From Salinivirgaceae bacterium (GTDB lineage Bacteria; Bacteroidota; Bacteroidia; Bacteroidales; SZUA-534): a stretch of 64,000 bases of DNA. Positions within the stretch are counted from its first letter, which is position 1; every line of letters begins with the position of its first letter. The notes under the pieces are model-generated. The model did not search any database, was not told where the DNA came from, and was given only the letters and a program-made list of their open reading frames with translations. Location: the NCBI GenBank assembly GCA_017557785.1, contig JAFYYA010000069.1, positions 4,288-68,287 of the forward strand, read 5' to 3'. The position numbers were made by a program, and so were the translations under genes. This document shows positions 2,547 to 22,701 of this stretch, piece by piece.

Positions 2547-4649
2547 CTAATAGAAGTTCGAACGGTTGTCCTCAATGTCGGCGGCAGCCTCGATTGCTGA
2601 CAGAACCTGATAGCCGGCTTTCGACATGTTGGTGCGTTGCAGCAACTCACGCTCGCGAGCCAAATCAATGTTTTCAGGTTTAACAACCTGCTTAACCTGA
2701 ATCAGGTAAACGCCGTTGTTACCCTTCAGCGGTGCGCTGATTTGTTGCTCAGGCAGTGTTACCATTGCGGCCTGAAGATTAGGCTCAACACCAACTGACG
2801 GAACTGAGTAAGAAGAGTAAGAAACGCTCTTAGCCTCTCTAACCTGCTCGCCAAGTTTGTCGGCAACAGACTGAAGAGTTGAAGCACCAGTGCTGGCGTC
2901 GCTGAGTTTTGAAATCAGATATTCGGCTTTCTTCTCAATCAGCACGCGGCGGGCAATATCGTTGCGAACCTCGTCGAGCGATGCTGTGCCTTCTTTGTGA
3001 ACACCTGCCACCATGGCGATTACAAACTGATTGTCGAGCTCAAAAATCTCTGAAATCTCGCCGTAACCAGCTTTGTAAACCCAACGGATAATCTGGCGCG
3101 GGCTTTCGAAGTTTGCCAAGCGGCGGTCGTCGCGTTTCACGTTTGCGGTGCGAAGAGTCAGACCTTCTTTGTCAGCATTGTTGCGGAACGACTCTAAGTT
3201 GCGGTTGCTGCTGCCGAAGCGGCTTGCGTTTGAATAGATGGCGTCAACAGTTTTGTTGCTTGCTGCCACTTCGCGGGCCAATATTGCAACTTGAACCTTC
3301 TGCGAAGGTGCGGTCTGGTTCTGAATCTCAACCACGTGATAGCCGAATTGTGTCTTCACAACAACCAAGTCACCCTTCTTGCCGAAGAAGCAAGCATCGT
3401 TGAACTCTTTCACCATCTGGCCCTCGGTGAACCAACCAAGGTTGCCACCGTCTTGTGCCGAACCGTCAGCAGAGAATTTCTCGGCCATTTCGGCAAACGA
3501 AGCGCCTTTCTTGATGGCGTTCAGAATACTGTCGGCTTTGGCTTTTGCCTCGTCCTCGGTCAAATCGGCCGACGGGCGGATGAGAATGTGACGGGCCTCA
3601 ACTGAATCTGCAACTCTTGCGCTGCCAATCTTGCGGGCCAGTTTCACATAGTTGCCTTCCTGATAAGGACCAACAACAGTGTTGTCAGCAGCGTCGAACA
3701 GGCTGGCAATCGGCTCTGAAAGATCTTCTTTAGCCAGATACTTGCCGCTGAAAGGCTGTTCCGACTCAAGATTTACAAACTGCTCAAGAGCGTCGCCGTC
3801 TTTGCTTGCAAATTCGTCTTTGATTTTTTCAACACTTTCAATTGTGGCAGTCAAGTCTTCGTCTGATGCTACAATCGGGAAAGTCACATAGTAAATGTCA
3901 CGCGACTCATCTTGTTTGAAATCAGACTCGTGAGCGCTGTAATATTTCTTCAGGTCGCTGTCGGTTACTTTCACAAGCGAATCGGCAACCGAGCTATAGC
4001 GCAGCTGAATGAAGTCGAAATCATATTTGATGTTCTTGTCGTCAGACTCTTTCTGAGCCTGAAGGTTGGTGGTGTACATTCCCATGCCAACCAGCGACAG
4101 GAATTTCTGGTCTTTCTTGTTCTGAACCAGGCTCTTCTCGAACGAAGCCCACGATGCGGCTGCCTGACCTGATGGATCCAATTCCTTGTTTTTCAGGAAC
4201 TGAACAACCAAATTGCGGTCGAACTGACCGGTTTGGGCATCGCGGAAGATTGGAATCTGCATAACCTGCGGGTCAACAAAGTTGCCTTGAACCATATCAA
4301 ACAACTCGTCGGCTGTTACATTGATGCCGGCTTTTTCATACTCTTCGTCAATAACATACTGACGGATAAGTTGTTCCCATGTCTGGTCCTGAATCTGATC
4401 ATAAACGTTTGTTTCCAGCGAGTTCTGCTGAGTGTTCTGCTTGTAGATCTCGGTGTTCTCGTCAACCTTTGCCTGATAGTACTGGATAGGAATATCAGTT
4501 CCGGCTATTGTGCCGACGTTGTTTCTTGAACTACCGAAAGTTCCGTCGGCTTTGAAAAGGTCGCCAACGATGAATGCCAATAAGGCCAATGCTACGATGA
4601 TTGTCACCAGTGTGCCTGCGTGGTCACGTATTTTCTGTAATGTTGCCAT
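2547..4649 (-). CDS. Membrane-anchored periplasmic peptidyl-prolyl isomerase/chaperone (PpiD/SurA-like)
   Basis: 700 aa with an N-terminal TM helix (LVTIIVALALLAFIVGDLF). It contains a parvulin PpiC domain: ARHILIRPSADL...GGNLGWFTEGQMVKEFNDACF...VKTQFGYHVVEI. Confidence 0.85.
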   Translation of the reverse strand: MATLQKIRDHAGTLVTIIVALALLAFIVGDLFKADGTFGSSRNNVGTIAGTDIPIQYYQAKVDENTEIYKQNTQQNSLETNVYDQIQDQTWEQLIRQYVIDEEYEKAGINVTADELFDMVQGNFVDPQVMQIPIFRDAQTGQFDRNLVVQFLKNKELDPSGQAAASWASFEKSLVQNKKDQKFLSLVGMGMYTTNLQAQKESDDKNIKYDFDFIQLRYSSVADSLVKVTDSDLKKYYSAHESDFKQDESRDIYYVTFPIVASDEDLTATIESVEKIKDEFASKDGDALEQFVNLESEQPFSGKYLAKEDLSEPIASLFDAADNTVVGPYQEGNYVKLARKIGSARVADSVEARHILIRPSADLTEDEAKAKADSILNAIKKGASFAEMAEKFSADGSAQDGGNLGWFTEGQMVKEFNDACFFGKKGDLVVVKTQFGYHVVEIQNQTAPSQKVQVAILAREVAASNKTVDAIYSNASRFGSSNRNLESFRNNADKEGLTLRTANVKRDDRRLANFESPRQIIRWVYKAGYGEISEIFELDNQFVIAMVAGVHKEGTASLDEVRNDIARRVLIEKKAEYLISKLSDASTGASTLQSVADKLGEQVREAKSVSYSSYSVPSVGVEPNLQAAMVTLPEQQISAPLKGNNGVYLIQVKQVVKPENIDLARERELLQRTNMSKAGYQVLSAIEAAADIEDNRSNFY

Positions 4650-4884
4650 TGTTTATTTTTTAAGGTTTATTTCAAAATTTTAGGCTACGAAGATAGTAAT
4701 TTTTAAAAACGGCATAGGAAAAAGGTTTTTTTTGAAAAACATCAGCAGCCAATTGATTATCAATGCTTTATCAAACGCTGTTTTTCGACTGCAATTACCT
4801 ATGACGGCAATCGGGCGTTACGAATAGCAACATTTTCAATCTGATTGCAACGAAACTGCCGCTACTGCGCGTTCAAATTTCCGG

Positions 4885-6132
4885 TTAGTTAACAATTATG
4901 TCGACAAGCTCGATTTTGGTGGCTGTGGCACGCAGAATGGTGAAGCGGAAATCGCCGACCACAATGGCGTCGTTCATCTTCGGAATGGCGCCGTGATGGG
5001 CAAGAATCAAGCCGGCCAGCGTTTCGTACTCGTCCGACACGGGCAGGTCAAGGCCGTATTTCTCATTGATGTAGTCGATTTCGAGCCGGGCAGAGAACTG
5101 ATAGTGGTTCTTGCCGAACTTGTGCTCGCGGTATCGCTTCTTGTCATACTCATCCTGAATGTCGCCTACAATCTCTTCCAAAATGTCTTCCATTGTCACA
5201 ATGCCCGATGTGCCGCCAAACTCATCAACCACGAGTGCCATACTGCGGTGGTTCTGGATGAAAAGCGCCAGCAGTTTGTTGGCAGGCATCGATTCGGGGA
5301 CAATCGGCATGTTGCGTGTGATGGCGGCAATGCTGGCCGGCTGCTGGAACATCGATATTGATGGCGCAAACCCCACCACATTATCGATAGAGCCTTTATA
5401 GACAATGATTTTCGAAAGTCCCGAACTGACAAACAGTTTCTTTAATTCGTCAAGGCTGTCGTTGATGGATATGGCCACAATTTCGGGCCGCGGAACCATA
5501 CACTCGCGCAGTTTCACCTTCGAGAAATCGAGCGCGTTGCGGAAAAGTTTCACATCGTTCGACTCATCATCGGTATCGGTGGCGCTCACCTGCTCATCGG
5601 CAAGCGAATCCCAGTCGACGGCGCCCCAATAAACGGCATCATCGCCTGATATCTTGTTGTGTGCAAACAAGTTCGACACGAGTCTTGATGTGTGGTAAAC
5701 CAATCGCGAAAGCAGGAAAAACAGATAGTAGAAGACAAAAACCGGCAGCGAAATAGCTTTCAAAAGGTTGTTGGACTCACTGCGGAACATGAGTTTTGGC
5801 AGAATCTCGCCGGCCAGCAAGTAAAGCAGAAAGGCGCACACAGCCTGCATGCAGAGCACCACCGCCACCCCGGCGGGAACGGACCACTCAAACCCGCAGT
5901 TGGCCATCAGCATCGCCATCGACACAATAACAATCAGATTGCCGATAGCCATTGTTGAATAGTACTGCGACGGATTGCCCATATAGAGCTCGATTATCTG
6001 CGAGAAAACGCGGTCCTGTTTCTTGTCGAGCTCAATGCGCAAGCGGTTGGCCGACACAAACGCCACTTCCATCGCCGAAAAAAACAACGCGAAAAGCGCA
6101 AGCACAATTAATAATATGTATTGAATTGCCAT
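4885..6132 (-). CDS. Hemolysin-family protein (DUF21 membrane domain, CBS pair, CorC_HlyC); GldE-like
   Basis: An N-terminal 4-TM DUF21 region (MAIQYILLIVLALFALFFSAMEVAFVSANRLRIEL) is followed by CBS-pair and CorC/HlyC C-terminal patterns (VVDEFGGTSGIVTMEDILEEIVGDIQDEYD). The ORF-track start at 6165 is TTG and I use ATG at 6130-6132. Confidence 0.85.
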   Translation of the reverse strand: MAIQYILLIVLALFALFFSAMEVAFVSANRLRIELDKKQDRVFSQIIELYMGNPSQYYSTMAIGNLIVIVSMAMLMANCGFEWSVPAGVAVVLCMQAVCAFLLYLLAGEILPKLMFRSESNNLLKAISLPVFVFYYLFFLLSRLVYHTSRLVSNLFAHNKISGDDAVYWGAVDWDSLADEQVSATDTDDESNDVKLFRNALDFSKVKLRECMVPRPEIVAISINDSLDELKKLFVSSGLSKIIVYKGSIDNVVGFAPSISMFQQPASIAAITRNMPIVPESMPANKLLALFIQNHRSMALVVDEFGGTSGIVTMEDILEEIVGDIQDEYDKKRYREHKFGKNHYQFSARLEIDYINEKYGLDLPVSDEYETLAGLILAHHGAIPKMNDAIVVGDFRFTILRATATKIELVDIIVN

Positions 6133-6183
6133 AGTTGTATTTGCTTCTTCCGCAAATGTAATCAATAAAATAATCGTACCGAT

Positions 6184-6702
6184 TTATTTCTCTCGCTTTC
6201 CGTAGGCCGACCGGCTCTCAGCCGCTATTGGCAGCGGCTCGTCGGTTGGCGTGGCGTACGTTTTTGGCTTGTAAATCGATAGGAAGTTCTGATTGAGCCG
6301 CATTTCCACTTCCCACATTGTTTGCTCAAAGCGGGCAGGCGTGAGCTGGCATTCCCAAACAACAATCACCTGCCAGCCGTTTTGCAGCAATATCTGGTAG
6401 TTCAGCTGGTCGCGCTCGCGATTGCGGTTGATTTTGGCCTGCCAGAAATCAACGTTGCTCTTTGGCATTCGAAACTTCGGGCAACCGCTGTGGCCGTGCC
6501 AGAAGCAACCGTTGACAAAAATAGCCGTGCGGTAGCGGCGCAGCACCACATCGGGTTTGCCCGGCACGCTACGTACATTGAGCCTATAGCGATAGCCGCG
6601 TTGCCACAGCCATTGTCGCACCTTCAGCTCGGGCTTGGTGTTGCGGCTGCGGATATGCGACATACAGCGGTGCCGCTGTTCGGGTGTTAATGGGTCGGGC
6701 AT
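6184..6702 (-). CDS. vsr: Very short patch repair endonuclease
   Basis: MSHIRSRNTKPELKVRQWLWQRGYRYRLNVRSVPGKPDVVLRRYRTAIFVNGCFWHGH..CPKFRMPKSNVDFWQAKINRNRERDQ...GWQVIVVWECQL is the textbook Vsr pattern (D in PDVV, FVNGCFWH, WEC). The ORF-track start at 6750 is TTG and I use ATG at 6700-6702. Confidence 0.9.
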   Translation of the reverse strand: MPDPLTPEQRHRCMSHIRSRNTKPELKVRQWLWQRGYRYRLNVRSVPGKPDVVLRRYRTAIFVNGCFWHGHSGCPKFRMPKSNVDFWQAKINRNRERDQLNYQILLQNGWQVIVVWECQLTPARFEQTMWEVEMRLNQNFLSIYKPKTYATPTDEPLPIAAESRSAYGKREK

Positions 6703-6855
6703 TTTGTTTTTTGAGATTTCAAATATTGTTAGCGAGTTGTTTATCGGCAAATGAACACCTTTATTTTATGGCAAAGGTACTGATAAATCTCAAACGTCAC
6801 GGTCAACTGGCCGTTGAATATCCGGCCACAGCGGTTTTCTTTTGTGTTTGTATTA

Positions 6856-7362
6856 ATGCAAAACAAAATGACACTGCAGGAAAAACTCGGGAAAGCCATT
6901 GTGCTGCTGCGCAAACAGCGAGGGTTGGCACAAGAGAAATTCGCCAACGAATCGGAAATCGACCGCCGCTATATGAGCGACATTGAGAACGGCAAGCGCA
7001 ACATATCAATCGATGTTATTGAACGGCTTGCTAAAAGCTTTGGAATCAGCGTTAGCGACTTGTTCGCAGTGGCGGAAAATATTGACAGCAACCGCACCCT
7101 TGACCAAATCAAAGAGTGGCTCTGCGATATGGGCTACGAAGATACCGTAGTGATGGAAAACCCCGATTACCTTTCTGCCATTGTCGGCGTCAGCGACGAC
7201 GGCCGCTTGATTTACGATTACGAGAAAATGGTTGAGCACCTTATGTCCACCGACGGAATGGACTACGAAGAAGCCAGCGAGTTTATCGATTTCAACACCA
7301 TTGGCGCGCTGCCCTATATGGGCGAGAAACGGCCGGTGATAATGAATAAGATTGAAGAATAA
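6856..7362 (+). CDS. XRE-family HTH transcriptional regulator with an unrecognised acidic C-terminal domain
   Basis: LQEKLGKAIVLLRKQRGLAQEKFANESEIDRRYMSDIENGKRNISIDVIERLAKSFGISVSDLF is an HTH_3 pattern. The roughly 100 aa C-terminal part (…YEDTVVMENPDYLSAIVGVSDDGRLIYDYEKMVEHLMSTDGMDYEEASEFIDFNTIGALPYMGEKRPVIM) is unassigned. The in-frame ATG 6856 is chosen, and ATG 6868 is also possible. The stop at 7360-7362 lies 2 nt before the next ATG. Confidence 0.8.
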   Translation: MQNKMTLQEKLGKAIVLLRKQRGLAQEKFANESEIDRRYMSDIENGKRNISIDVIERLAKSFGISVSDLFAVAENIDSNRTLDQIKEWLCDMGYEDTVVMENPDYLSAIVGVSDDGRLIYDYEKMVEHLMSTDGMDYEEASEFIDFNTIGALPYMGEKRPVIMNKIEE

Positions 7363-7364
7363 TT

Positions 7365-9473
7365 ATGGCAAGATGCTTATATTCAGACAGCTTTGTCCAA
7401 TTCATAAAAGCTGATGTAAACGCGGTTGTCGGGCAGTTGCATTGTAATTACCACGGTGATGCCCTTACCACGACCAACGAAGCTTGGAAGAGCGAAGTTG
7501 AGCTGTTGCAAACGGTTCTTGCACCTTGGCAAAATGAAGATGCTGAGATTATTTTTGAGTATGACATTCCGCGCCTTGGCAAACGCATAGATGTTGTGCT
7601 TCTGCTTCGCGGAATCATTTTTTGCCTTGAGTTCAAAGTCGGGCAAAAAGACGCATTACAGGCCGATGTTGACCAAGTGATGGATTATGCTCTTGACTTG
7701 AAAAATTTTCACAAATTCAGCCACGACCGCACAATCGTTCCAATTCTTATTCCAACAAATTATCCTTCAGCAACTTCCGAATTTCAACCGTCAGTCTATA
7801 ACGACGACATTTACAATCCTTTAATCTCGGGTGCCGATGGTCTGCAAAGCTTGATAAGCAAGGTTTTATTGCGAGAAAACACACCTTCGGGCACCATAGC
7901 CAATTGGGTGATAAGCCCTTACAAGCCAACGCCAACTATTGTTGAAGCAGCCAGAGCATTGTACGAGAATCATTCGGTTGAAGACATTACAAGGCACGAA
8001 GCCGACAATGTTTCGACAGATAGAACTATCAATTACATTCTCAGCATTATAGAACGAAGTAAAAACAGCGGGCAGAAAAGCATTTGCTTTGTGACGGGTG
8101 TTCCCGGCGCAGGAAAAACGCTTGTCGGGCTCGATGTGGCTATAAAACAGACGTGTAAGGACAAAGAAAATGGCGCGGTTTATCTGTCAGGCAACGGCCC
8201 GTTGGTTGCGGTTTTGACTGAAGCTCTTGCGCGTAATAATGTGGAAAAGAGCAAAATGCGTGGCGAGAAAAGAAACAAGTCCGATGCAGAACGCGACGTC
8301 AGAAAATTCATTCAGGTAATCCACCGTTATCGCGAGAATATGATTCTCAAAATTAAAAATCCGATAGAAAACGGTGTGGTTGAGATTGACCCCGAAAAAT
8401 CGATAAAGGTTGATGAAAAGTCGGGCCACGCCGAAGTTGAGCACGTTGCTATTTTCGACGAAGCGCAGCGCAGTTGGACGCACAAGCGCATAGCTGATTA
8501 TCTGAAGCGCGGCGGCACATACGGTAACAAAACGAAAGTTGCTGATTTCCCGATGTCAGAAGCTGAATTTTTGATTTGGTCGCTCGACCAGCGAAAAGAT
8601 TGGGCCACAATTGTTTGCCTTGTCGGTGGCGGTCAAGAGATAAACACGGGCGAAGCCGGCATTGCCGAGTGGATTGCGGCACTTAACAACCGGTTCCAGC
8701 ATTGGCAGGTATTTATTTCCGATAAACTGACCGAGCCCGAATATGCCGAAGGTCGCGTTAATGAACTATTGCAAAACAATCCGAAAGTTACGTTTGCGAA
8801 TGATTTGCACCTATCGGTCAGCCTACGCTCGTTTCGTGCCGAAAAACTATCGGCTTTCGTCCATTCAATGCTATCGTTCAATACCGATGCGGCGCTGTTA
8901 TACAATGAGATACAAAACCGAAATTATCCAATAGTTCTTACTCGCGACATAAACAAAGCCCGCAAATGGCTCAGGGATAAAGCTCGCGGAAACGAACACA
9001 CCGGTTTGCTTGTTACAAAAGTCGCGGCACGATTCAAACCATTGGCAGTTAGCGTATTGCAGCAAGGCGACGAGAACGCCATACATTGGTTTTTGGAAGA
9101 TAAAACAGATGTGCGTTCGTCGAATTATCTTGAAGACGCCGCAACCGAAATACAAGTGCAAGGTTTGGAACTCGACTACACCTGCGTGCTTTGGGACGCT
9201 GATATGAGATGCGACAATAATAAATGGACATTTTACAAATTCAGTAATACCACAAGCAAATGGTCGCCAGAGAGTAATGAAGAGAATCGTAAATATGCTC
9301 TCAACGCTTATCGTGTCCTACTTACTCGGGCTCGTCAGGGAATGGTTATTTGTGTTCCTTATGGCAACGAGAAGAAAAATGCTGATGGCTTTCCCGAAGA
9401 CCCGACACGTTTGCCCGAATTTTACAATAGCACATATAATTATCTGAAATCATTAGGATTGAAAGAATTGTGA
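7365..9473 (+). CDS. PD-(D/E)XK nuclease domain fused to a DUF2075-type SF1 helicase/ATPase
   Basis: The N-terminus reads EIIFEYDIPRLGKRIDVVLLLRGIIFCLEFKVGQ, with D at 7590-7592 and ExK at 7629-7637, a restriction-endonuclease-like core. Helicase motifs follow: Walker A GVPGAGKT (about 8095-8118), Walker B/DExx VAIFDEAQR, VCLVGGGQEINTGEAG (GDxxQ-like) and motif VI YRVLLTRARQGMVI. The overall layout and length match proteins usually labelled DUF2075. Confidence 0.8.
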   Translation: MARCLYSDSFVQFIKADVNAVVGQLHCNYHGDALTTTNEAWKSEVELLQTVLAPWQNEDAEIIFEYDIPRLGKRIDVVLLLRGIIFCLEFKVGQKDALQADVDQVMDYALDLKNFHKFSHDRTIVPILIPTNYPSATSEFQPSVYNDDIYNPLISGADGLQSLISKVLLRENTPSGTIANWVISPYKPTPTIVEAARALYENHSVEDITRHEADNVSTDRTINYILSIIERSKNSGQKSICFVTGVPGAGKTLVGLDVAIKQTCKDKENGAVYLSGNGPLVAVLTEALARNNVEKSKMRGEKRNKSDAERDVRKFIQVIHRYRENMILKIKNPIENGVVEIDPEKSIKVDEKSGHAEVEHVAIFDEAQRSWTHKRIADYLKRGGTYGNKTKVADFPMSEAEFLIWSLDQRKDWATIVCLVGGGQEINTGEAGIAEWIAALNNRFQHWQVFISDKLTEPEYAEGRVNELLQNNPKVTFANDLHLSVSLRSFRAEKLSAFVHSMLSFNTDAALLYNEIQNRNYPIVLTRDINKARKWLRDKARGNEHTGLLVTKVAARFKPLAVSVLQQGDENAIHWFLEDKTDVRSSNYLEDAATEIQVQGLELDYTCVLWDADMRCDNNKWTFYKFSNTTSKWSPESNEENRKYALNAYRVLLTRARQGMVICVPYGNEKKNADGFPEDPTRLPEFYNSTYNYLKSLGLKEL

Positions 9474-9503
9474 AACAATCTTGCAAAATTGTAAGTTTGC
9501 ATT

Positions 9504-9893
9504 ATGAAAACAATCCAAGTCTCCGCCGCCATAATCCACGACAACGCCGGCCGCATATTCGCCACTCAGCGCGGATATGGCGATATGCAGGGCGGTTGGG
9601 AATTTTCGGGTGGCAAGATTGAATCGGGCGAAACGCCCGAAGCGGCTCTGAAACGCGAGATTTTGGAAGAGTTGGACACGCAAATAGTTGTTGAGCAGTT
9701 CATTACCACGGTCGAATACGATTACCCCAATTTCCACCTGACTATGCACTGCTATTGGTGCCGTGTTGCGAGCGGCACTCTGACACTTAAAGAGCACCAA
9801 GCCGCAAAATGGTTGTCGACAAACGAGCTCGACAGTGTGAACTGGCTGCCGGCGGATAAAATCGTTGTGGAAGAAATCAAAAGACGATTGTAG
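9504..9893 (+). CDS. Nudix (deoxy)nucleoside-triphosphate pyrophosphohydrolase, MutT/NudG-like
   Basis: 129 aa with a near-canonical Nudix box, GGKIESGETPEAALKREILEELD, preceded by WEFSGGK. The overall pattern resembles E. coli MutT/NudG. Confidence 0.9.
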   Translation: MKTIQVSAAIIHDNAGRIFATQRGYGDMQGGWEFSGGKIESGETPEAALKREILEELDTQIVVEQFITTVEYDYPNFHLTMHCYWCRVASGTLTLKEHQAAKWLSTNELDSVNWLPADKIVVEEIKRRL

Positions 9894-9942
9894 CCATAAA
9901 AAACTCCACCGACTTGGTAGAGTTTCTCGCGTCCAAACCATA

Positions 9943-11403
9943 TCACAGCCCAAACGATTCTTTTGTCGCTTTTAAAGTATTCTCGCCAACGGTGTAGGCG
10001 TAGCACGCCGAAGGAAGGAACTGCAGACTGCCGTATGGCATTTCTCTTTTCCCTGTTTCGGAAAGCGATGTGACAATGGCGTGCGTCAGGCCGTTCTTTT
10101 TCATAAACTGCTCAAGAGATGTTAACTCCGATGCGGGATTTGCAAATGGCTTGTTTGTCCATTTCACCTCCACCGCCCATTGCGGTTTTTGCCGTGCTTC
10201 GTTTATGCCGACAATATCTACCTCGCCTTTCTTTTTATTACCCTCGTTCCAATTGGCATAAGCAATATTAGCATTTCTAGGAATCCACTGCGCATACACG
10301 GCCGTTTCAACCATATTGCCGATAGCTTCATCGTTCTCGTCAATAGGTTGGAAAAGAGCGCACCGTAGCGACGGGTTGGTGAGATATAGTTTGAACATCA
10401 TCTCCCGGCGGTAATCCTTGGCTGTGTCATCGGCCCTTCGAATCTTTTTCACCAGAAAGGCCGCCTCAAGGTATTGTATATACTTACGTAGCGTATCTTT
10501 CTTAACACCAGAATCTTTCGACAGACCTTCGTATGAGAATTGCGCCCCCGAATGATAGGCTATCATTGTGAAGAGCGAGTTCAGTTCCTGAACGTCAGTT
10601 ATTCCGTACAAACTTGGCAAATCGCGCAGCAGCACTTTATCCACAATGTCGTGGCGGATGAATTGTCCTGGGTTCTCTTGCATGCGTTGCGAGAAAACAA
10701 CCTCTGGATAGCCACCGTAATTGATATAATCGACAAACAGATTGTTCAGTTTTGCAATGTCGATGGTTGTGTTTCCTGTTATGTCCCCATTCGACCACTC
10801 CATTTTTAAAGGAATCATAAGTTGCGCATAGTCTTTCAAGTGCACATACTCAAAGAATGTCAGTGGCGGCAGGCTGAAATCGGTAAAGCGCCCGGCACCA
10901 CTCTCGTCGCTACGCTTCTTCAATTCGGCGGCAGCAGAGCCCGATGCCACAAACTTGACATTGCGGTAGGTGTCAACCAGCGATTTCAGATTAATCTCCC
11001 AATTTTTCAAATACTGAATCTCGTCGAAGAATACATAAAACCGCTCGCTGCTGTCGCTTTTTCCCAATGCCTGTTTGGCAAAATTAAAGAGTTGCTCCAG
11101 CAGTATCTTATTATAAATTGGCGTCTCCACCGATATGTAAATAATGTTTTGCGGCGAAACGCCATCCGCAATCAAGCGCTGAATGGTGTGATAAAGCATA
11201 ACCGTCTTGCCCACACGGCGCGGCCCCATCAGTATGACAGCCCGGCGGATTTCCATATTTGTCACTAACGGATAGAATATGTCGAGATACAAGCGGGGGC
11301 GCATATCCGCATAGTCCTTTGCGATTTGATTCTCCGTCCACCACGGATTGTCCACACGTAGCCTTCCGATAATTTGTTTCTCCAATATCTCGTTGTACAA
11401 CAT
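9943..11403 (-). CDS. AAA_14-type ATPase with C-terminal DUF4143 (PD-(D/E)XK-like) domain
   Basis: Walker A ILMGPRRVGKT and Walker B YVFFDEIQY are present. The C-terminal GEVDIVGINEARQKPQWAVEVKW gives a D...E-x-K nuclease-fold motif. The N-terminal pattern (NPWW...) is typical of this abundant Bacteroidota family. Confidence 0.8.
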   Translation of the reverse strand: MLYNEILEKQIIGRLRVDNPWWTENQIAKDYADMRPRLYLDIFYPLVTNMEIRRAVILMGPRRVGKTVMLYHTIQRLIADGVSPQNIIYISVETPIYNKILLEQLFNFAKQALGKSDSSERFYVFFDEIQYLKNWEINLKSLVDTYRNVKFVASGSAAAELKKRSDESGAGRFTDFSLPPLTFFEYVHLKDYAQLMIPLKMEWSNGDITGNTTIDIAKLNNLFVDYINYGGYPEVVFSQRMQENPGQFIRHDIVDKVLLRDLPSLYGITDVQELNSLFTMIAYHSGAQFSYEGLSKDSGVKKDTLRKYIQYLEAAFLVKKIRRADDTAKDYRREMMFKLYLTNPSLRCALFQPIDENDEAIGNMVETAVYAQWIPRNANIAYANWNEGNKKKGEVDIVGINEARQKPQWAVEVKWTNKPFANPASELTSLEQFMKKNGLTHAIVTSLSETGKREMPYGSLQFLPSACYAYTVGENTLKATKESFGL

Positions 11404-11714: not shown

Positions 11715-11800
11715 GCTCGAAAAGAATGGGGTGCCGCAAGGCTGAGATTATACCCTTTGAACCTGATACGGGTAATGCCGGCGTAGGGATAAGACTCTGA
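11715..11800 (+). promoter_or_regulatory. TPP (THI-box) riboswitch aptamer
   Basis: AATGGGGTGCCGCAAGGCTGAGATTATACCCTTTGAACCTGATACGGGTAATGCCGGCGTAGGGATAAG carries all the conserved TPP blocks: GGGGUGC, GCUGAGA, ACCC, ACCUGAU, UAAUGCC and GCGUAGGGA. A further GACTCT/AGAGTC hairpin follows at about 11793-11818, before the ATG at 11873. Confidence 0.9.
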
Positions 11801-11872
11801 TTTCCAAGAGTCAAAGTATAATTCTTTCATAACCCCCATTTCAATCTTTTTACTAACTAAAAATTTTAAAAG

Positions 11873-14296
11873 ATGAAAAGGGATTTTCTTACAGCAGCAG
11901 CCGTCGTTCTGTCGGCAGCGAGCGCAGTGGCGCAAGAAAGCGCTACAGACACGGTGATTACCGCCGAACAACTGCAGGAAGTTGTGGTGAGCGGTGTCCG
12001 TGCACCGAAAAACGCACCGTTCGCGGTGGCAAACATCAAAAAACAACAGTTAAATGAGTTCTCGACAACGGGCCGCGAATTGCCGTTCCTGTTCTCGCAG
12101 ACGCCAGGCGTTGTGGCGTGGGGCGAAAACGGACTCGGAACGGGCACAACCTATATGCGCATCCGCGGTGCGGGCGACTCGCGCATCAATGTCACCATCG
12201 ACGGTGTGCCGCTCAACTCGCCCGAAGACCAGTGCGTCTTTTGGGCCAATATGAACTCTTACGGCTCGCTGTTGGGCAGCGTGCAGATTCAGCGCGGCGT
12301 AGGCTCGTCGACCAATGGCGACGGCGCTTTCGGCGGCACGGTGGCGCTCTCGTCGGCTTTGCCATCGCTCAAGCCGATGGTTGAACTGTCGGTTTCGTAC
12401 GGCTCGTTCAACACCATCAATTTTGGCGGAAAGGCTTCTACAGGATTGTTGTTCAATGGGTTGATAATCGATGGTGCCTACCACCAGACGCGCACCGACG
12501 GCTTTGTACACGGCACCCAGGCTAACAGCGGCTCGTACTACGGCGGCCTGATGTGGACCATCGACAATCTGCAAATCCGATACAAGAACATCGGCAACTT
12601 TGAGCGCACGGGCCAGGCTTGGAACGGCATCACCGCAGGCGACAACGATTTGAGCCTGATGGACGGCACCTATGGCGCGAAGACGGGCATCAAGACCTAC
12701 GAAGATTTGTGGAAAGTGGGGCTTGGCCGATACAACACTCTGTATGAGACACTTGAGTATGATGAAGATGGCAATTTCAAGCGCGATGCCGACGGCAACT
12801 ATCAGACCGTCCGCTACCAGAAAGACGGCTCGCCGTGGGACCGCACCACCGACAACTTTTGGCAGGACCACAACATTCTTTCACTTGCGTGGAACATCAC
12901 CAACAATCTATCAACTTCGGCATCAGTGCATTACACCTACGGATACGGCTACTACGAAGAGTTCCGCCCGAACAACAAACTCAAGAAATTCGGACTCGAA
13001 AACGTCAAAATAAACGATTCGACATCGGTGAAAAAGACCGATTTTGTTCGTAAGAAGGGGCTGTCGCAGAACACCTACGGACTTGTTTGGAACGTGAACT
13101 ATTCGGCTGACGCTCTTGATATTATCGGCGGTGCGGCGGTGCAGAATTTCAGCGGGAACCACTTCGGCTATCTGACTTATGCCAAAGACGCCACTGTGCG
13201 CCAGACCTATCTGCCTGACGGTGAGCGCAAATACTACGATTCTGATGCCGACAAGTTCGATGGCAGCGCGTTTGTGAAGGCGTCGTACACCATCGGCGAA
13301 AGCCTGACAGTATTCGGCGATGTGCAGTTCCGTCACGTGGGCTACACCACCAGCGGCATCAACGATAAGTTTGTTGAAGGCGCAAACGGCTACGAGAACC
13401 AGCGTCTCGACATCGATGAGACATACAATTTCCTGAATCCGAAGGCGGGATTGAGTTACACCTTTGGCAGCAACCGCGTGTACGCTTCGGTGGCCGTGAG
13501 CCATCGCGAGCCCGAGCGCAACAATTTCACCGACAACGGCTCTTACCCCGCCCCCAAGGCCGAGCAACTAACTGATATTGAAGGTGGTTGGCAGTTCAGT
13601 GGCAAGACCGTGCGCACCGGTCTGAACCTGTATTATATGGACTACACCGACCAGTTTGTGCAGACGGGCGCGCAGAGCGACATAGGCGAGAAACTCACCA
13701 CCAACATCAAAGACTCGTACCGCGCAGGCGCTGAAATTCAGGCTTCCGTTGATGTTACCGAATGGCTAACTATTGAAGGCAACATCGCCTTGAGCATCAA
13801 CAAGATAAAAGACTTTGACGAGTATGTTGAGAATTGGGACGACTGGGAAGGCAACACCGATGCCAACGGCAACCCCTACGACGGCGACGGCTTCGACATC
13901 ATCCACTACGACAACTCAACGCTGGCTTTCTCGCCATCGGCCATTGCAAACGGCTTTGTGAACTTCCACCACAAAGGCTGGCAGGCCGTTTGGCACACGG
14001 GCTACGTAAGCCGTCAGTATCTCGACAACACAGAGAACAACGACCGCTCGCTGCCGGCCTATTCGCTCTCAAACGTTAGTCTGAGTTACACGCTGAAACC
14101 GCAGAAAGTGCTGAAGGAAGCCATCTTCGGACTGAATTTTAACAACGTGTTGAATCGCCACTGCGCCGCCAACGGCTGGGTTTATTCGGCCATCTGCGAC
14201 AGTTACGGCCACCCCAACGACAACCGCTACTACCAAATCGGCTTCGTTCCGATGGCTGGATTCACAATGATGGGCAGCGTGACGGTGAGGTTTTGA
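11873..14296 (+). CDS. TonB-dependent outer-membrane receptor, probably a thiamine/thiamine-precursor transporter
   Basis: 807 aa with a signal peptide (MKRDFLTAAAVVLSAASAVAQE). A plug domain is present (…VVVSG…FSQTPGVVAW…YMRIRGAGDSRINVTIDGVPLNSPEDQ…IQRGVGSSTNGDGAFGGTV), and the C-terminus is a beta-barrel ending in F. The substrate is inferred from the TPP riboswitch. Confidence 0.9.
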   Translation: MKRDFLTAAAVVLSAASAVAQESATDTVITAEQLQEVVVSGVRAPKNAPFAVANIKKQQLNEFSTTGRELPFLFSQTPGVVAWGENGLGTGTTYMRIRGAGDSRINVTIDGVPLNSPEDQCVFWANMNSYGSLLGSVQIQRGVGSSTNGDGAFGGTVALSSALPSLKPMVELSVSYGSFNTINFGGKASTGLLFNGLIIDGAYHQTRTDGFVHGTQANSGSYYGGLMWTIDNLQIRYKNIGNFERTGQAWNGITAGDNDLSLMDGTYGAKTGIKTYEDLWKVGLGRYNTLYETLEYDEDGNFKRDADGNYQTVRYQKDGSPWDRTTDNFWQDHNILSLAWNITNNLSTSASVHYTYGYGYYEEFRPNNKLKKFGLENVKINDSTSVKKTDFVRKKGLSQNTYGLVWNVNYSADALDIIGGAAVQNFSGNHFGYLTYAKDATVRQTYLPDGERKYYDSDADKFDGSAFVKASYTIGESLTVFGDVQFRHVGYTTSGINDKFVEGANGYENQRLDIDETYNFLNPKAGLSYTFGSNRVYASVAVSHREPERNNFTDNGSYPAPKAEQLTDIEGGWQFSGKTVRTGLNLYYMDYTDQFVQTGAQSDIGEKLTTNIKDSYRAGAEIQASVDVTEWLTIEGNIALSINKIKDFDEYVENWDDWEGNTDANGNPYDGDGFDIIHYDNSTLAFSPSAIANGFVNFHHKGWQAVWHTGYVSRQYLDNTENNDRSLPAYSLSNVSLSYTLKPQKVLKEAIFGLNFNNVLNRHCAANGWVYSAICDSYGHPNDNRYYQIGFVPMAGFTMMGSVTVRF

Positions 14297-22541: not shown

Positions 22542-22631
22542 GGAGAAATGGCCGAGTGGTCGAAGGCGCACGCCTGGAAAGTGTGTATACCATGTGAAAT
22601 GGTATCGTGGGTTCGAATCCCCCTTTCTCCG
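22542..22631 (+). tRNA. tRNA-Ser (anticodon GGA), type II with a long variable arm
   Basis: The acceptor stem GGAGAAA/TTTCTCC has discriminator G. The anticodon stem-loop is CACGC-CTGGAAA-GTGTG, with a long variable arm and a GTTCGAATC T-loop. No encoded CCA. Confidence 0.9.
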
Positions 22632-22701
22632 CAAATGAGATGATTTATTAACATTAATTATTAATAAGTAAACAAAACCGTAATAACAAAAAAGAAAGAT
22701 T

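Follow-up and report, generated by a model that had tools for sequence, protein, structure and literature searches.

A Nhi-like nuclease-helicase in a regulator–Nudix frame shared with Type IV restriction enzymes: a candidate defence operon in a Salinivirgaceae genome

Do an XRE-type regulator, a nuclease-helicase and a Nudix hydrolase encoded side by side in a bacterial genome make up one dedicated defence system, or are they held together in some looser way? We addressed this question for a three-gene cassette in a 64,000-nucleotide stretch of a Salinivirgaceae bacterium (Bacteroidales; contig JAFYYA010000069.1, positions 4,288–68,287), hereafter the window, within which all coordinates are given. 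The cassette comprises three same-strand open reading frames (ORFs): a 164-amino-acid (aa) XRE/controller-protein-like regulator (6868–7362, +), a 702-aa protein joining a PD-(D/E)XK nuclease to a DUF2075 superfamily 1 (SF1) helicase (7365–9473, +; gene 2) and a 129-aa MutT/NudG-type Nudix hydrolase (9504–9893, +). The co-directional order and the gaps of 2 nucleotides (nt; 7363–7364) and 30 nt (9474–9503) agree with a preliminary description made from the sequence alone, as do the flanking genes, vsr (6184–6750, −) and an AAA_14/DUF4143 ATPase (9943–11403, −). That description began gene 1 at 6856; the conserved start is instead the ATG at 6868, which opens the M-T-L-Q common to all homologous loci and to the 164-aa gene calls. 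PADLOC models of defence or candidate defence genes match all three genes plus both neighbours. Judged from sequence comparison, this is a genuine defence locus whose anatomy had been read essentially correctly. It is better described as a predicted nuclease-helicase of a known single-gene type (PDC-S41, Nhi-like) plugged into a frame, formed by the regulator and Nudix genes, that is common with Type IV restriction enzymes.

The effector assignment is carried by gene 2. It matches PADLOC PDC-S41 (profile PDLC05014) with E = 2.2e-250, residues 1–702 aligning to positions 1–653 of 657, and Pfam SLFN-g3_helicase/DUF2075 (PF09848) covers aa 238–665 (1e-68). In an alignment with 41 diverse relatives (34–66% identity), the Walker A motif GVPGAGKT (245–252), DEAQ (365–368) and R655/R657 of LLTRARQG (652–659) are invariant, so that the P-loop/DEAQ/TRARQG helicase of DUF2075 type proposed earlier is borne out. 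The nuclease domain spans aa 1 to ~130. Its core, previously read as E...D...E-F-K, is found exactly at the coordinates given then and corresponds to E65, D76 and E89-F-K91; in the same alignment E65, E89 and K91 do not vary, and conservation of D76 reaches at least 90%. In an AlphaFold 2 model (mean predicted local distance difference test score, pLDDT, 89), these residues lie on the canonical alpha-beta-beta-beta-alpha-beta core. The model resembles full-length SLFN11/14 (the top Foldseek hits), Dna2, Upf1 and nsp13, and a sequence search of the PDB with gene 2 returned only P-loop-level matches to SLFN5 and SLFN11. Gene 2 shares with Schlafen group III proteins the SLFN-g3 helicase domain but not the AlbA_2 core, the Schlafen RNase domain, for which Pfam gave no match; its N-terminus has the PD-(D/E)XK fold. 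Pfam likewise detected no modified-base reader in gene 2 (DUF3427, SRA, PUA/EVE, McrB-N and similar), and the model contains no extra beta-barrel domain.

These features define a predicted stand-alone PD-(D/E)XK nuclease plus DUF2075/Schlafen-type SF1 helicase, built like Nhi. Nhi (S. epidermidis SERP2475; Bari et al., bioRxiv 776245) and Nhi-like (Millman et al. 2022, bioRxiv 2022.05.11.491447) are validated single-gene nuclease + DUF2075 defences, and gene 2 has the same N-terminal PD-(D/E)XK-type nuclease and DUF2075 SF1 helicase in one polypeptide; the likeness to Nhi-like is one of architecture only. Beyond the P-loop, however, gene 2 has no significant similarity to Nhi: the PADLOC Nhi profile matched only the P-loop region (232–277, E = 0.0023), which places gene 2 outside the Nhi family. 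It also differs from Nhi in its XRE...Nudix frame, in which the cargo can be swapped for Type IV enzymes. Hhe is a helicase fused to a Vsr-like nuclease; here vsr is a separate, divergent gene and the gene 2 nuclease carries E-D-ExK.

Could gene 2 be a housekeeping helicase-nuclease of DNA repair or replication, like Dna2 or AddAB? Its fold similarity to Dna2, UvrD and Upf1 would fit such a role, but the distribution of the family makes it highly improbable. The family comprises 4,457 clusters (50% identity) at E<1e-3 and 839 at E<1e-30. Copies 64–68% identical to gene 2 are scattered patchily over Bacteroidales, Clostridia (Lachnospiraceae), Erysipelotrichaceae, Alphaproteobacteria, Kiritimatiellia, Spirochaetales and a Methanobrevibacter metagenome-assembled genome (MAG), a signature of horizontal transfer in view of that identity across phyla. 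Genes directly next to family members include HpaII, DpnII, EcoRI methylase, BrxA, UvrD-like helicases, Fic and PIN. This defence-rich neighbourhood, the match to a PADLOC candidate model, the foreign base composition of gene 2 and the occupation of the same slot at one locus by either gene 2 or McrBC (both described below) all argue against a housekeeping role. Together, the PADLOC matches and the defence-type distribution and neighbourhood of the gene 2 family support the earlier proposal of a candidate defence module. The archaeal copy (L043 7001–9121; Methanobrevibacter sp. MAG, goat ileum, JAFRFD010000059.1) is 66% identical and may reflect either cross-domain transfer or a binning artefact. 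A phage-borne origin of gene 2 was rejected: a single-protein scan of viral contigs was empty and a profile scan gave only 21 loci at 30–48% identity, the family being rare on viral contigs. We found no mention of PDC-S41 in the papers searched, and PDC-S07, the model matched by the Nudix gene, occurred there only in survey tables.

How gene 2 is embedded became clear from comparison with related loci (denoted by L numbers). In loci that carry McrBC (L011/L012/L096) or a PADLOC mREase_IV gene (L004) as alternative cargo, vsr is 73–86%, XRE 85–94% and Nudix 88–91% identical to the genes of the window. Nucleotide homology (blastn) to these loci ends at the XRE stop (7362), comes back at 9496–9509 (between 8 nt 5' and 5 nt 3' of the first base of the Nudix start codon) and ends at 9899, 6 bases past the Nudix stop; it is missing exactly over 7363–9495, the slot of gene 2. 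The sequence of a further locus, L095, opens within an Nhi-like gene that is 92% identical to gene 2; this locus shares with the McrBC-bearing L011/L012 more than 6 kb of downstream DNA at 93–95% identity, so PDC-S41 and McrBC appear as alleles at one chromosomal site.

Base composition separates the same parts. The GC content of the cassette (0.462) lies at the 13th percentile of 3-kb windows, against a mean of 0.482 for the 64 kb, and GC at third codon positions (GC3) of gene 2 is 0.459 versus 0.615 ± 0.058 for 23 long ORFs of the window, which ties the minimum. GC3 is host-typical for XRE (0.63), Nudix (0.615) and vsr (0.67). The view that the cassette as a whole is compositionally foreign was therefore abandoned, the deviation being confined to gene 2, within which both of the 60-nt lines counted in the preliminary description fall; for gene 2 itself the view stands. 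We regard the effector as recently acquired cargo between host-adapted regulator and Nudix genes, on the evidence of composition and breakpoints. A discrete mobile element was rejected as an account of the cassette, which has neither direct repeats on its flanks nor an integrase or tRNA; a resolvase adjoins the relative L188 and a primase-like mobile genetic element gene adjoins L187.

The frame recurs with a restricted choice of cargo. In all nine sampled contexts of the XRE gene, the gene immediately downstream is PDC-S41 (five contexts: window/L003, L175–177, L178–179, L186 and L187) or a Type IV enzyme (four: SauUSI-like PLD-helicase(-DUF3427) in L004/6, L180–185 and L188–190, and McrBC in L011/12/96/105), and in eight of the nine the last gene of the operon is Nudix. 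The XRE–PDC-S41–Nudix triad itself was seen in no fewer than four chromosomal settings that are unrelated to one another (window/L003, L175–177, L178–179, L186), so the objection that the three genes lack conserved linkage fails. The surroundings of the frame are CorC/AAA_14 in the window and DEAD/DUF5131, AlaDH/HisIE, RF-1/RloB-AAA_21, SbcCD/peptidase C14 and YhcG/resolvase elsewhere. Many frame junctions overlap by 1–4 nt, and an SRA-domain gene stands between the SauUSI-like effector and Nudix in L180–185. Effector and Nudix do not diverge together: among 19 adjacent pairs their identities are uncorrelated (Mantel r=0.12, p=0.19), which rules out pairwise co-transfer or co-evolution and argues that the two do not form a co-adapted complex. 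L175 illustrates this, its XRE (P0423) being 84%, its Nudix 67% and its effector 41% identical to those of the window. The dedicated, co-adapted three-gene system originally envisaged is thus unsupported, since the same XRE and Nudix flank Type IV enzymes and there is no co-divergence.

Two further arrangements were seen around the frame. In the frame that carries McrBC, the DNA between vsr and XRE contains an inserted RhuM-family gene, which falls between the equivalents of window positions 6702 and 6798 (L011 646–2019, L012 654–2027, L105 964–2337; all −). In L186, two tandem SLFN_AlbA_2 + HATPase_c_4 genes (3355–6722) lie directly upstream of the XRE–PDC-S41 unit, so that both halves of the eukaryotic Schlafen architecture are present there as separate neighbouring genes.

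We then asked how often the genes keep company when the search starts from either end. Around 80 species-representative PDC-S41 loci, a Nudix gene of the same subfamily was the commonest immediate neighbour (8 of 75 downstream, 2 of 66 upstream), with ~6 further Nudix genes within 4 kb. It was adjacent in 10 of ~76 species, across phyla (P ~1e-15 under an assumed background of 0.2%); an HTH gene lay upstream in only ~3 of 66. The linkage of the three genes is therefore tight from the XRE side (9/9 contexts), whereas most PDC-S41 genes lack both partners. Prevotella PDC-S41 genes 74% identical to gene 2 sit between a 49-aa ORF and mreBCD and have no XRE or Nudix; these homologues and the count of 10 in ~76 species rule out Nudix as an obligate PDC-S41 partner. 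The short ORF 5' of the Prevotella-type genes (49–50 aa; L015 6644–6793, L001 7848–7997) matches only the end of DUF1016_N (1e-10), the N-terminal domain of YhcG-like nucleases, which suggests the remnant of a displaced gene and hence another cargo replacement.

From the Nudix side, 80 metagenomic loci around close relatives (57–94% identical) were surveyed, and the upstream ORF could be called in 66. The gene immediately upstream carried DUF3427 in 28 of these and matched PADLOC mREase_IV in 26. After de-replication (n=50), the upstream neighbours included 21 SauUSI-type enzymes (42%), 2 Nhi-like proteins, 2 Vsr and 1 McrC. Overall, Bacteroidota, Clostridia and Kiritimatiellia all provided cases of Nudix next to PDC-S41 or to a Type IV enzyme. 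One lineage of loci (L101, L103, L104, L106, L109, L110, L115, L121, L125 and L128) has a constant 189-aa ORF 3' of Nudix and varied upstream genes (Type I restriction–modification (R-M)-like sets and others); in this lineage Nudix marks, by its sequence context, the constant border of a defence island whose content varies.

This last arrangement fits a different explanation, namely that the genes have no functional link: vsr and Nudix would be housekeeping genes for repair and sanitation, placed by chance at the edge of a hotspot into which defence genes integrate, and XRE would come from the cassettes or the hotspot. The host-typical GC3 of the frame genes and the position of the breakpoints at gene boundaries speak for it as well, and NUDIX genes flank a defence hotspot of P. 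aeruginosa (PMC10250203). We nevertheless consider it unlikely. The frame occurs in at least six unrelated chromosomal contexts, Nudix stands beside PDC-S41 or Type IV enzymes in several phyla, the 1–4 nt junction overlaps suggest translational coupling, and 42% of the distinct upstream neighbours of Nudix belong to one enzyme class.

What does the Nudix protein do? Its assignment as a MutT/NudG-like enzyme with a near-canonical Nudix box is confirmed by Pfam (NUDIX 4e-18, NUDIX_4 2.6e-17) and by the closest curated models. It corresponds to PADLOC PDC-S07 (profile PDLC04899, 3.5e-50; residues 1–127 against profile positions 3–130 of 135). Against the MutT NCBIfam model TIGR00586 it scored 97.6 bits, a borderline value 0.3 below the cutoff of 97.9, and against NudG PRK10546 it scored 83.9 bits, below the cutoff of 156. 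The best PDB match was 3gwy, a 'putative CTP pyrophosphohydrolase', and NudG 2rrk (5.9e-16) was comparable to MutT. E. coli MutT recognises 8-oxoG through Asn119; at the equivalent position the window protein has Asp (LPADK; the MutT-type 7syc has PPANE), and this Asp is kept in 19 of 19 Nhi-adjacent Nudix genes. E. coli NudG prefers 5-methyl-dCTP, which MutT cleaves too (PMC3744803, PMC5158307).

Upstream of the gene, the element TAAGTTTG (9492–9499, +) lies 4 nt 5' of the Nudix ATG, where the preliminary description had placed it, and is conserved in relatives. It occurs at the same spacing in L003 and L095, the more divergent L178 has TAAATTTG, and loci whose cargo runs into the start of the Nudix gene (L004, L175) lack it. 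The element matches TAnnTTTG, the published Bacteroides −7 promoter consensus, and is a possible internal promoter that would give a leaderless or short-leader Nudix mRNA.

A Nudix gene next to a nuclease-helicase restriction enzyme is not without precedent, contrary to the earlier suggestion that the combination was undescribed. A conserved MutT/Nudix gene was reported in 2011 beside sauUSI and at least 60 homologues, with 'function to be examined', and in staphylococci such a gene adjoins that of the Type IV enzyme (Xu et al. 2011, PMC3141236); deletion of the SauUSI-linked nudix does not abolish restriction (Monk et al. 2012, PMC3312211). We found no later functional work on this Nudix in the literature. 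As at the window locus, the SauUSI arrangement pairs a large ATP-dependent nuclease-helicase with a small Nudix before or after it, and SauUSI-like enzymes in relatives of the window are flanked by the very same Nudix and XRE. The enzymes themselves differ, in that SauUSI combines a PLD nuclease, an SF2 helicase and DUF3427, whereas gene 2 combines PD-(D/E)XK and SF1 DUF2075 and has no DUF3427/SRA reader. The S. aureus Nudix is likened to that of the window by gene association, not by orthology. L144 (5856–6278, −) and L153 (1058–1480, −) each have a second Nudix paralogue, in divergent orientation, ~4 kb upstream of the one linked to SauUSI.

These data bear on the reading with which the question began, a dedicated three-component system in which Nudix acts as a second effector and depletes or hydrolyses (deoxy)nucleoside triphosphates ((d)NTPs) during infection. 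In its favour, depletion of nucleotides is a well-known defence against phages, the genes are arranged as an operon, the Nudix family has an entry of its own among the PADLOC defence candidates (PDC-S07) and the triad was met in four contexts or more. We consider this reading quite unlikely all the same: McrBC and SauUSI-like enzymes are served by the same Nudix and XRE, the divergence of Nudix does not follow that of the effector, a Nudix neighbour is missing from ~87% of PDC-S41 genes, and Nudix itself is a 129-aa housecleaning enzyme of MutT/NudG type. In addition, loss of the SauUSI-linked nudix left restriction intact (PMC3312211), and the possible promoter of its own suggests that Nudix is expressed constitutively and not in response to infection. 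The proposed depletion of dNTPs by Nudix thus found no support.

In the regulator, the helix-turn-helix (HTH) domain (~aa 1–70) matches Pfam HTH_3 (9.7e-13) and PADLOC Control_protein (5.8e-19), and the best PDB matches, by fold as well as by sequence, are the R-M controller (C) proteins C.BclI (7.6e-8 by sequence), C.Esp1396I and C.AhdI; the fold superimposes on C.AhdI and C.Esp1396I with a root-mean-square deviation of 0.8–1.6 Å at 30–38% identity. The C-terminal domain (~aa 78–160, ~90 aa) is acidic, with 21 D/E against 7 K/R, as conserved as the HTH with many invariant positions, and confidently modelled, and beyond the HTH nothing in Pfam, the PDB or BFVD matched it. The earlier picture of an HTH_3 regulator with an acidic C-terminal domain lacking a family match therefore holds, at ~90 aa. 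The family is narrow, with ~340 clusters that are always 163–167 aa long. The best viral fold match to the XRE model was BFVD A0A8S5VCK1 (Siphoviridae sp. ctDXu9, 152 aa; 160 columns, 28% identity), and a gut phage may thus encode a two-domain homologue.

Upstream of the regulator gene, in the vsr/XRE divergent promoter region, lies an imperfect 16-bp palindrome, ACGGTCAACTGGCCGT (6799–6814), of the form ACGG-N8-CCGT. Every locus with an XRE of 78% identity or more keeps it, independently of the cargo (window, L003, L096, L011, L004, L175 and L178), while the intergenic DNA around it diverges among those loci. From this conservation we infer a candidate XRE operator, likened to the C-boxes of R-M controller proteins, and a putative autoregulated control of the nuclease operon that may extend to the divergent vsr. 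As with C proteins, the XRE gene stands immediately upstream of a nuclease gene, and the conserved palindrome upstream of it may be a counterpart of their operators. The regulator differs from C proteins in its extra conserved 90-aa acidic domain, in a candidate operator unlike published C-boxes and in a unit that contains no methyltransferase (MTase), so that the cognate MTase expected of a C protein is missing from it. The same region holds one arm of a perfect 14-nt inverted repeat, AACCGCTGTGGCCG / CGGCCACAGCGGTT, at 6483–6496 (inside vsr) and 6823–6836 (in the XRE promoter region); the CCACA core of the promoter-region arm is conserved across loci, and the rough chance expectation of such a repeat is ~0.04 in the 4.4-kb region.

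Tight gene order and a potentially toxic nuclease also raise the idea that Nudix or the C-terminal domain of XRE restrains the nuclease-helicase as a protein-level antitoxin or immunity factor; HipB, PezA and HigA are among the weak NCBIfam matches of XRE, and its conserved extra domain has no assigned role. We consider this very improbable, because the same XRE (85–94%) and Nudix stand beside structurally unrelated effectors (PD-(D/E)XK–SF1, PLD–SF2 and McrBC), neither co-diverges with the effector, and the best XRE matches are transcriptional controller proteins.

On the other side of the candidate operator, vsr encodes a very-short-patch T:G mismatch endonuclease (TIGR00632 153.4 bits, cutoff 97.85; Pfam Vsr 1e-30) and diverges from the XRE gene. 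It is found 73–96% identical at the same position in L003, L004/6 and L011/12, and frames in L175, L178, L180 and L188 have no vsr; vsr is an optional left-hand member of the frame. A dcm partner was ruled out within the window, where no C5-MTase motif IV (PCQxFS-type) was found. A looser scan for [DNS]PP[YFW] gave one hit (SPPW, ~56453, in a 1,066-codon ORF), which was not methyltransferase-like.

Taken together, we think the odds somewhat better than even that the locus is a one-effector defence operon on a reusable frame, with an Nhi-like effector, a C-protein-like regulator and Nudix as a sanitiser. In such an operon, the effector would translocate along or unwind invading DNA at the expense of ATP and couple this to nucleolytic degradation. 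The regulator would bind the ACGG-N8-CCGT palindrome and set the level and timing of a potentially self-toxic nuclease, its acidic C-terminal domain serving perhaps as a dimerisation or sensing module. Nudix, the least certain element, would be an optional housecleaning partner rather than an effector, and might be transcribed from a promoter of its own. Its proposed task is the hydrolysis of non-canonical dNTPs, of which 5-methyl-dCTP or related modified dCTPs, recovered when foreign or methylated DNA is broken down, are the most plausible. This would keep modified bases out of the host chromosome and avoid self-restriction; deamination of modified bases that had been incorporated would produce T:G mismatches for repair by Vsr. 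Because the company of Nudix includes SauUSI/DUF3427, SRA, McrBC and Vsr, it is most economically read as a dispensable modified-cytosine sanitiser.

Several observations weigh against this sanitiser operon. The mechanism of gene 2 is transferred by architecture and not by orthology, as the Nhi model matches the P-loop only; and since gene 2 has no detectable reader of modified bases, its methylcytosine link comes from the company of the frame. Most PDC-S41 genes have no Nudix, so any protective role of Nudix would be dispensable. The substrate of Nudix is not predictable from sequence: three of its Asp-bearing PDB relatives are labelled MutT, and a score only 0.3 bits under the MutT cutoff leaves room for an ordinary 8-oxo-dGTPase. 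A vsr without dcm in the window does not fit easily, the operator and the internal promoter are proposals at the level of a consensus, and PDC-S41 and PDC-S07 rank only as PADLOC candidates.

A wider scheme is possible, though we would not bet on it. The XRE...Nudix pair, with or without vsr, could be a plug-and-play safety chassis in which the regulator gates any nuclease and Nudix sanitises 5-methyl- or 5-hydroxymethyl-dCTP against autoimmunity; PDC-S41 proteins would then be analogues of Type IV enzymes that act through an unrecognised reader.

How far do known systems already cover such an operon? The PADLOC models PDC-S41, PDC-S07 and PDC-S01, which derive from guilt-by-embedding (Payne et al., bioRxiv 2024.01.29.577857) and are matched here by gene 2, Nudix and the ATPase, are treated in PADLOC as independent single-gene candidates. 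A term search of the main text of that paper returned no mention of PDC-S41–PDC-S07 adjacency or of a shared frame. Defence hotspots such as the P. aeruginosa cDHS and those of P2/P4 likewise hold alternative defence genes between conserved flanks, but here the flanks, a regulator and an enzyme, form an operon with the cargo and move together with the slot to different chromosomal sites, and the exchange is ORF-precise. The CRISPR-associated adenosine deaminase (CAAD) system, whose operon includes a Nudix that processes ITP made by the effector (PMC13276650), is a precedent for a defence-operon Nudix acting on a non-canonical nucleotide, although the window locus has no nucleotide-modifying effector. 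The component families and the association of Nudix with restriction helicases are already known. What appears not to have been described before is that cargo is exchanged ORF-precisely inside an XRE...Nudix frame, that Nudix also partners DUF2075 nuclease-helicases and that the regulator carries an orphan C-terminal domain.

A question that dates from 2011, what the MutT-type Nudix tied to Type IV enzymes does, now extends to Nhi-like nuclease-helicases and becomes testable: one frame with three effector classes provides natural isogenic alleles, and the sanitation of modified dCTP by Nudix, which would avoid self-restriction, is a concrete hypothesis. The locus is also a clean example of modular exchange, its effectors appearing to have been swapped ORF-precisely between a conserved regulator and an accessory enzyme. 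PDC-S41 and PDC-S07 are uncharacterised candidates of the kind reported in defence surveys of rumen and gut, to which the locus adds a regulator, a candidate operator and an orphan protein domain as nominees for study.

The remaining features of the window lie outside the frame. The convergent AAA_14/DUF4143 ATPase (AAA_14 8e-33, DUF4143 3e-24, PADLOC PDC-S01 1.6e-60) is not part of the unit, because homology to other frame-bearing loci ends at 9899. AAA_14/DUF4143 ATPases are abundant in Bacteroidales, and the presence of a similar one (L001 5903–7192) near a Nudix-less Prevotella PDC-S41 gene may be coincidence. A scan for sigma-70 promoters and terminators gave counts no better than those for shuffled sequence, the model being inapplicable to Bacteroidetes promoters. 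The sole tRNA of the window, tRNA-Ser (GGA) at 22542–22632 (+), is distant from the cassette. A thiamine pyrophosphate (TPP) riboswitch (Rfam RF00059; score 60 bits, gathering threshold 54.3) was found at 11717–11806 (+), directly upstream of an 807-aa outer-membrane-receptor-like ORF (11873–14296), an arrangement consistent with thiamine-regulated uptake.

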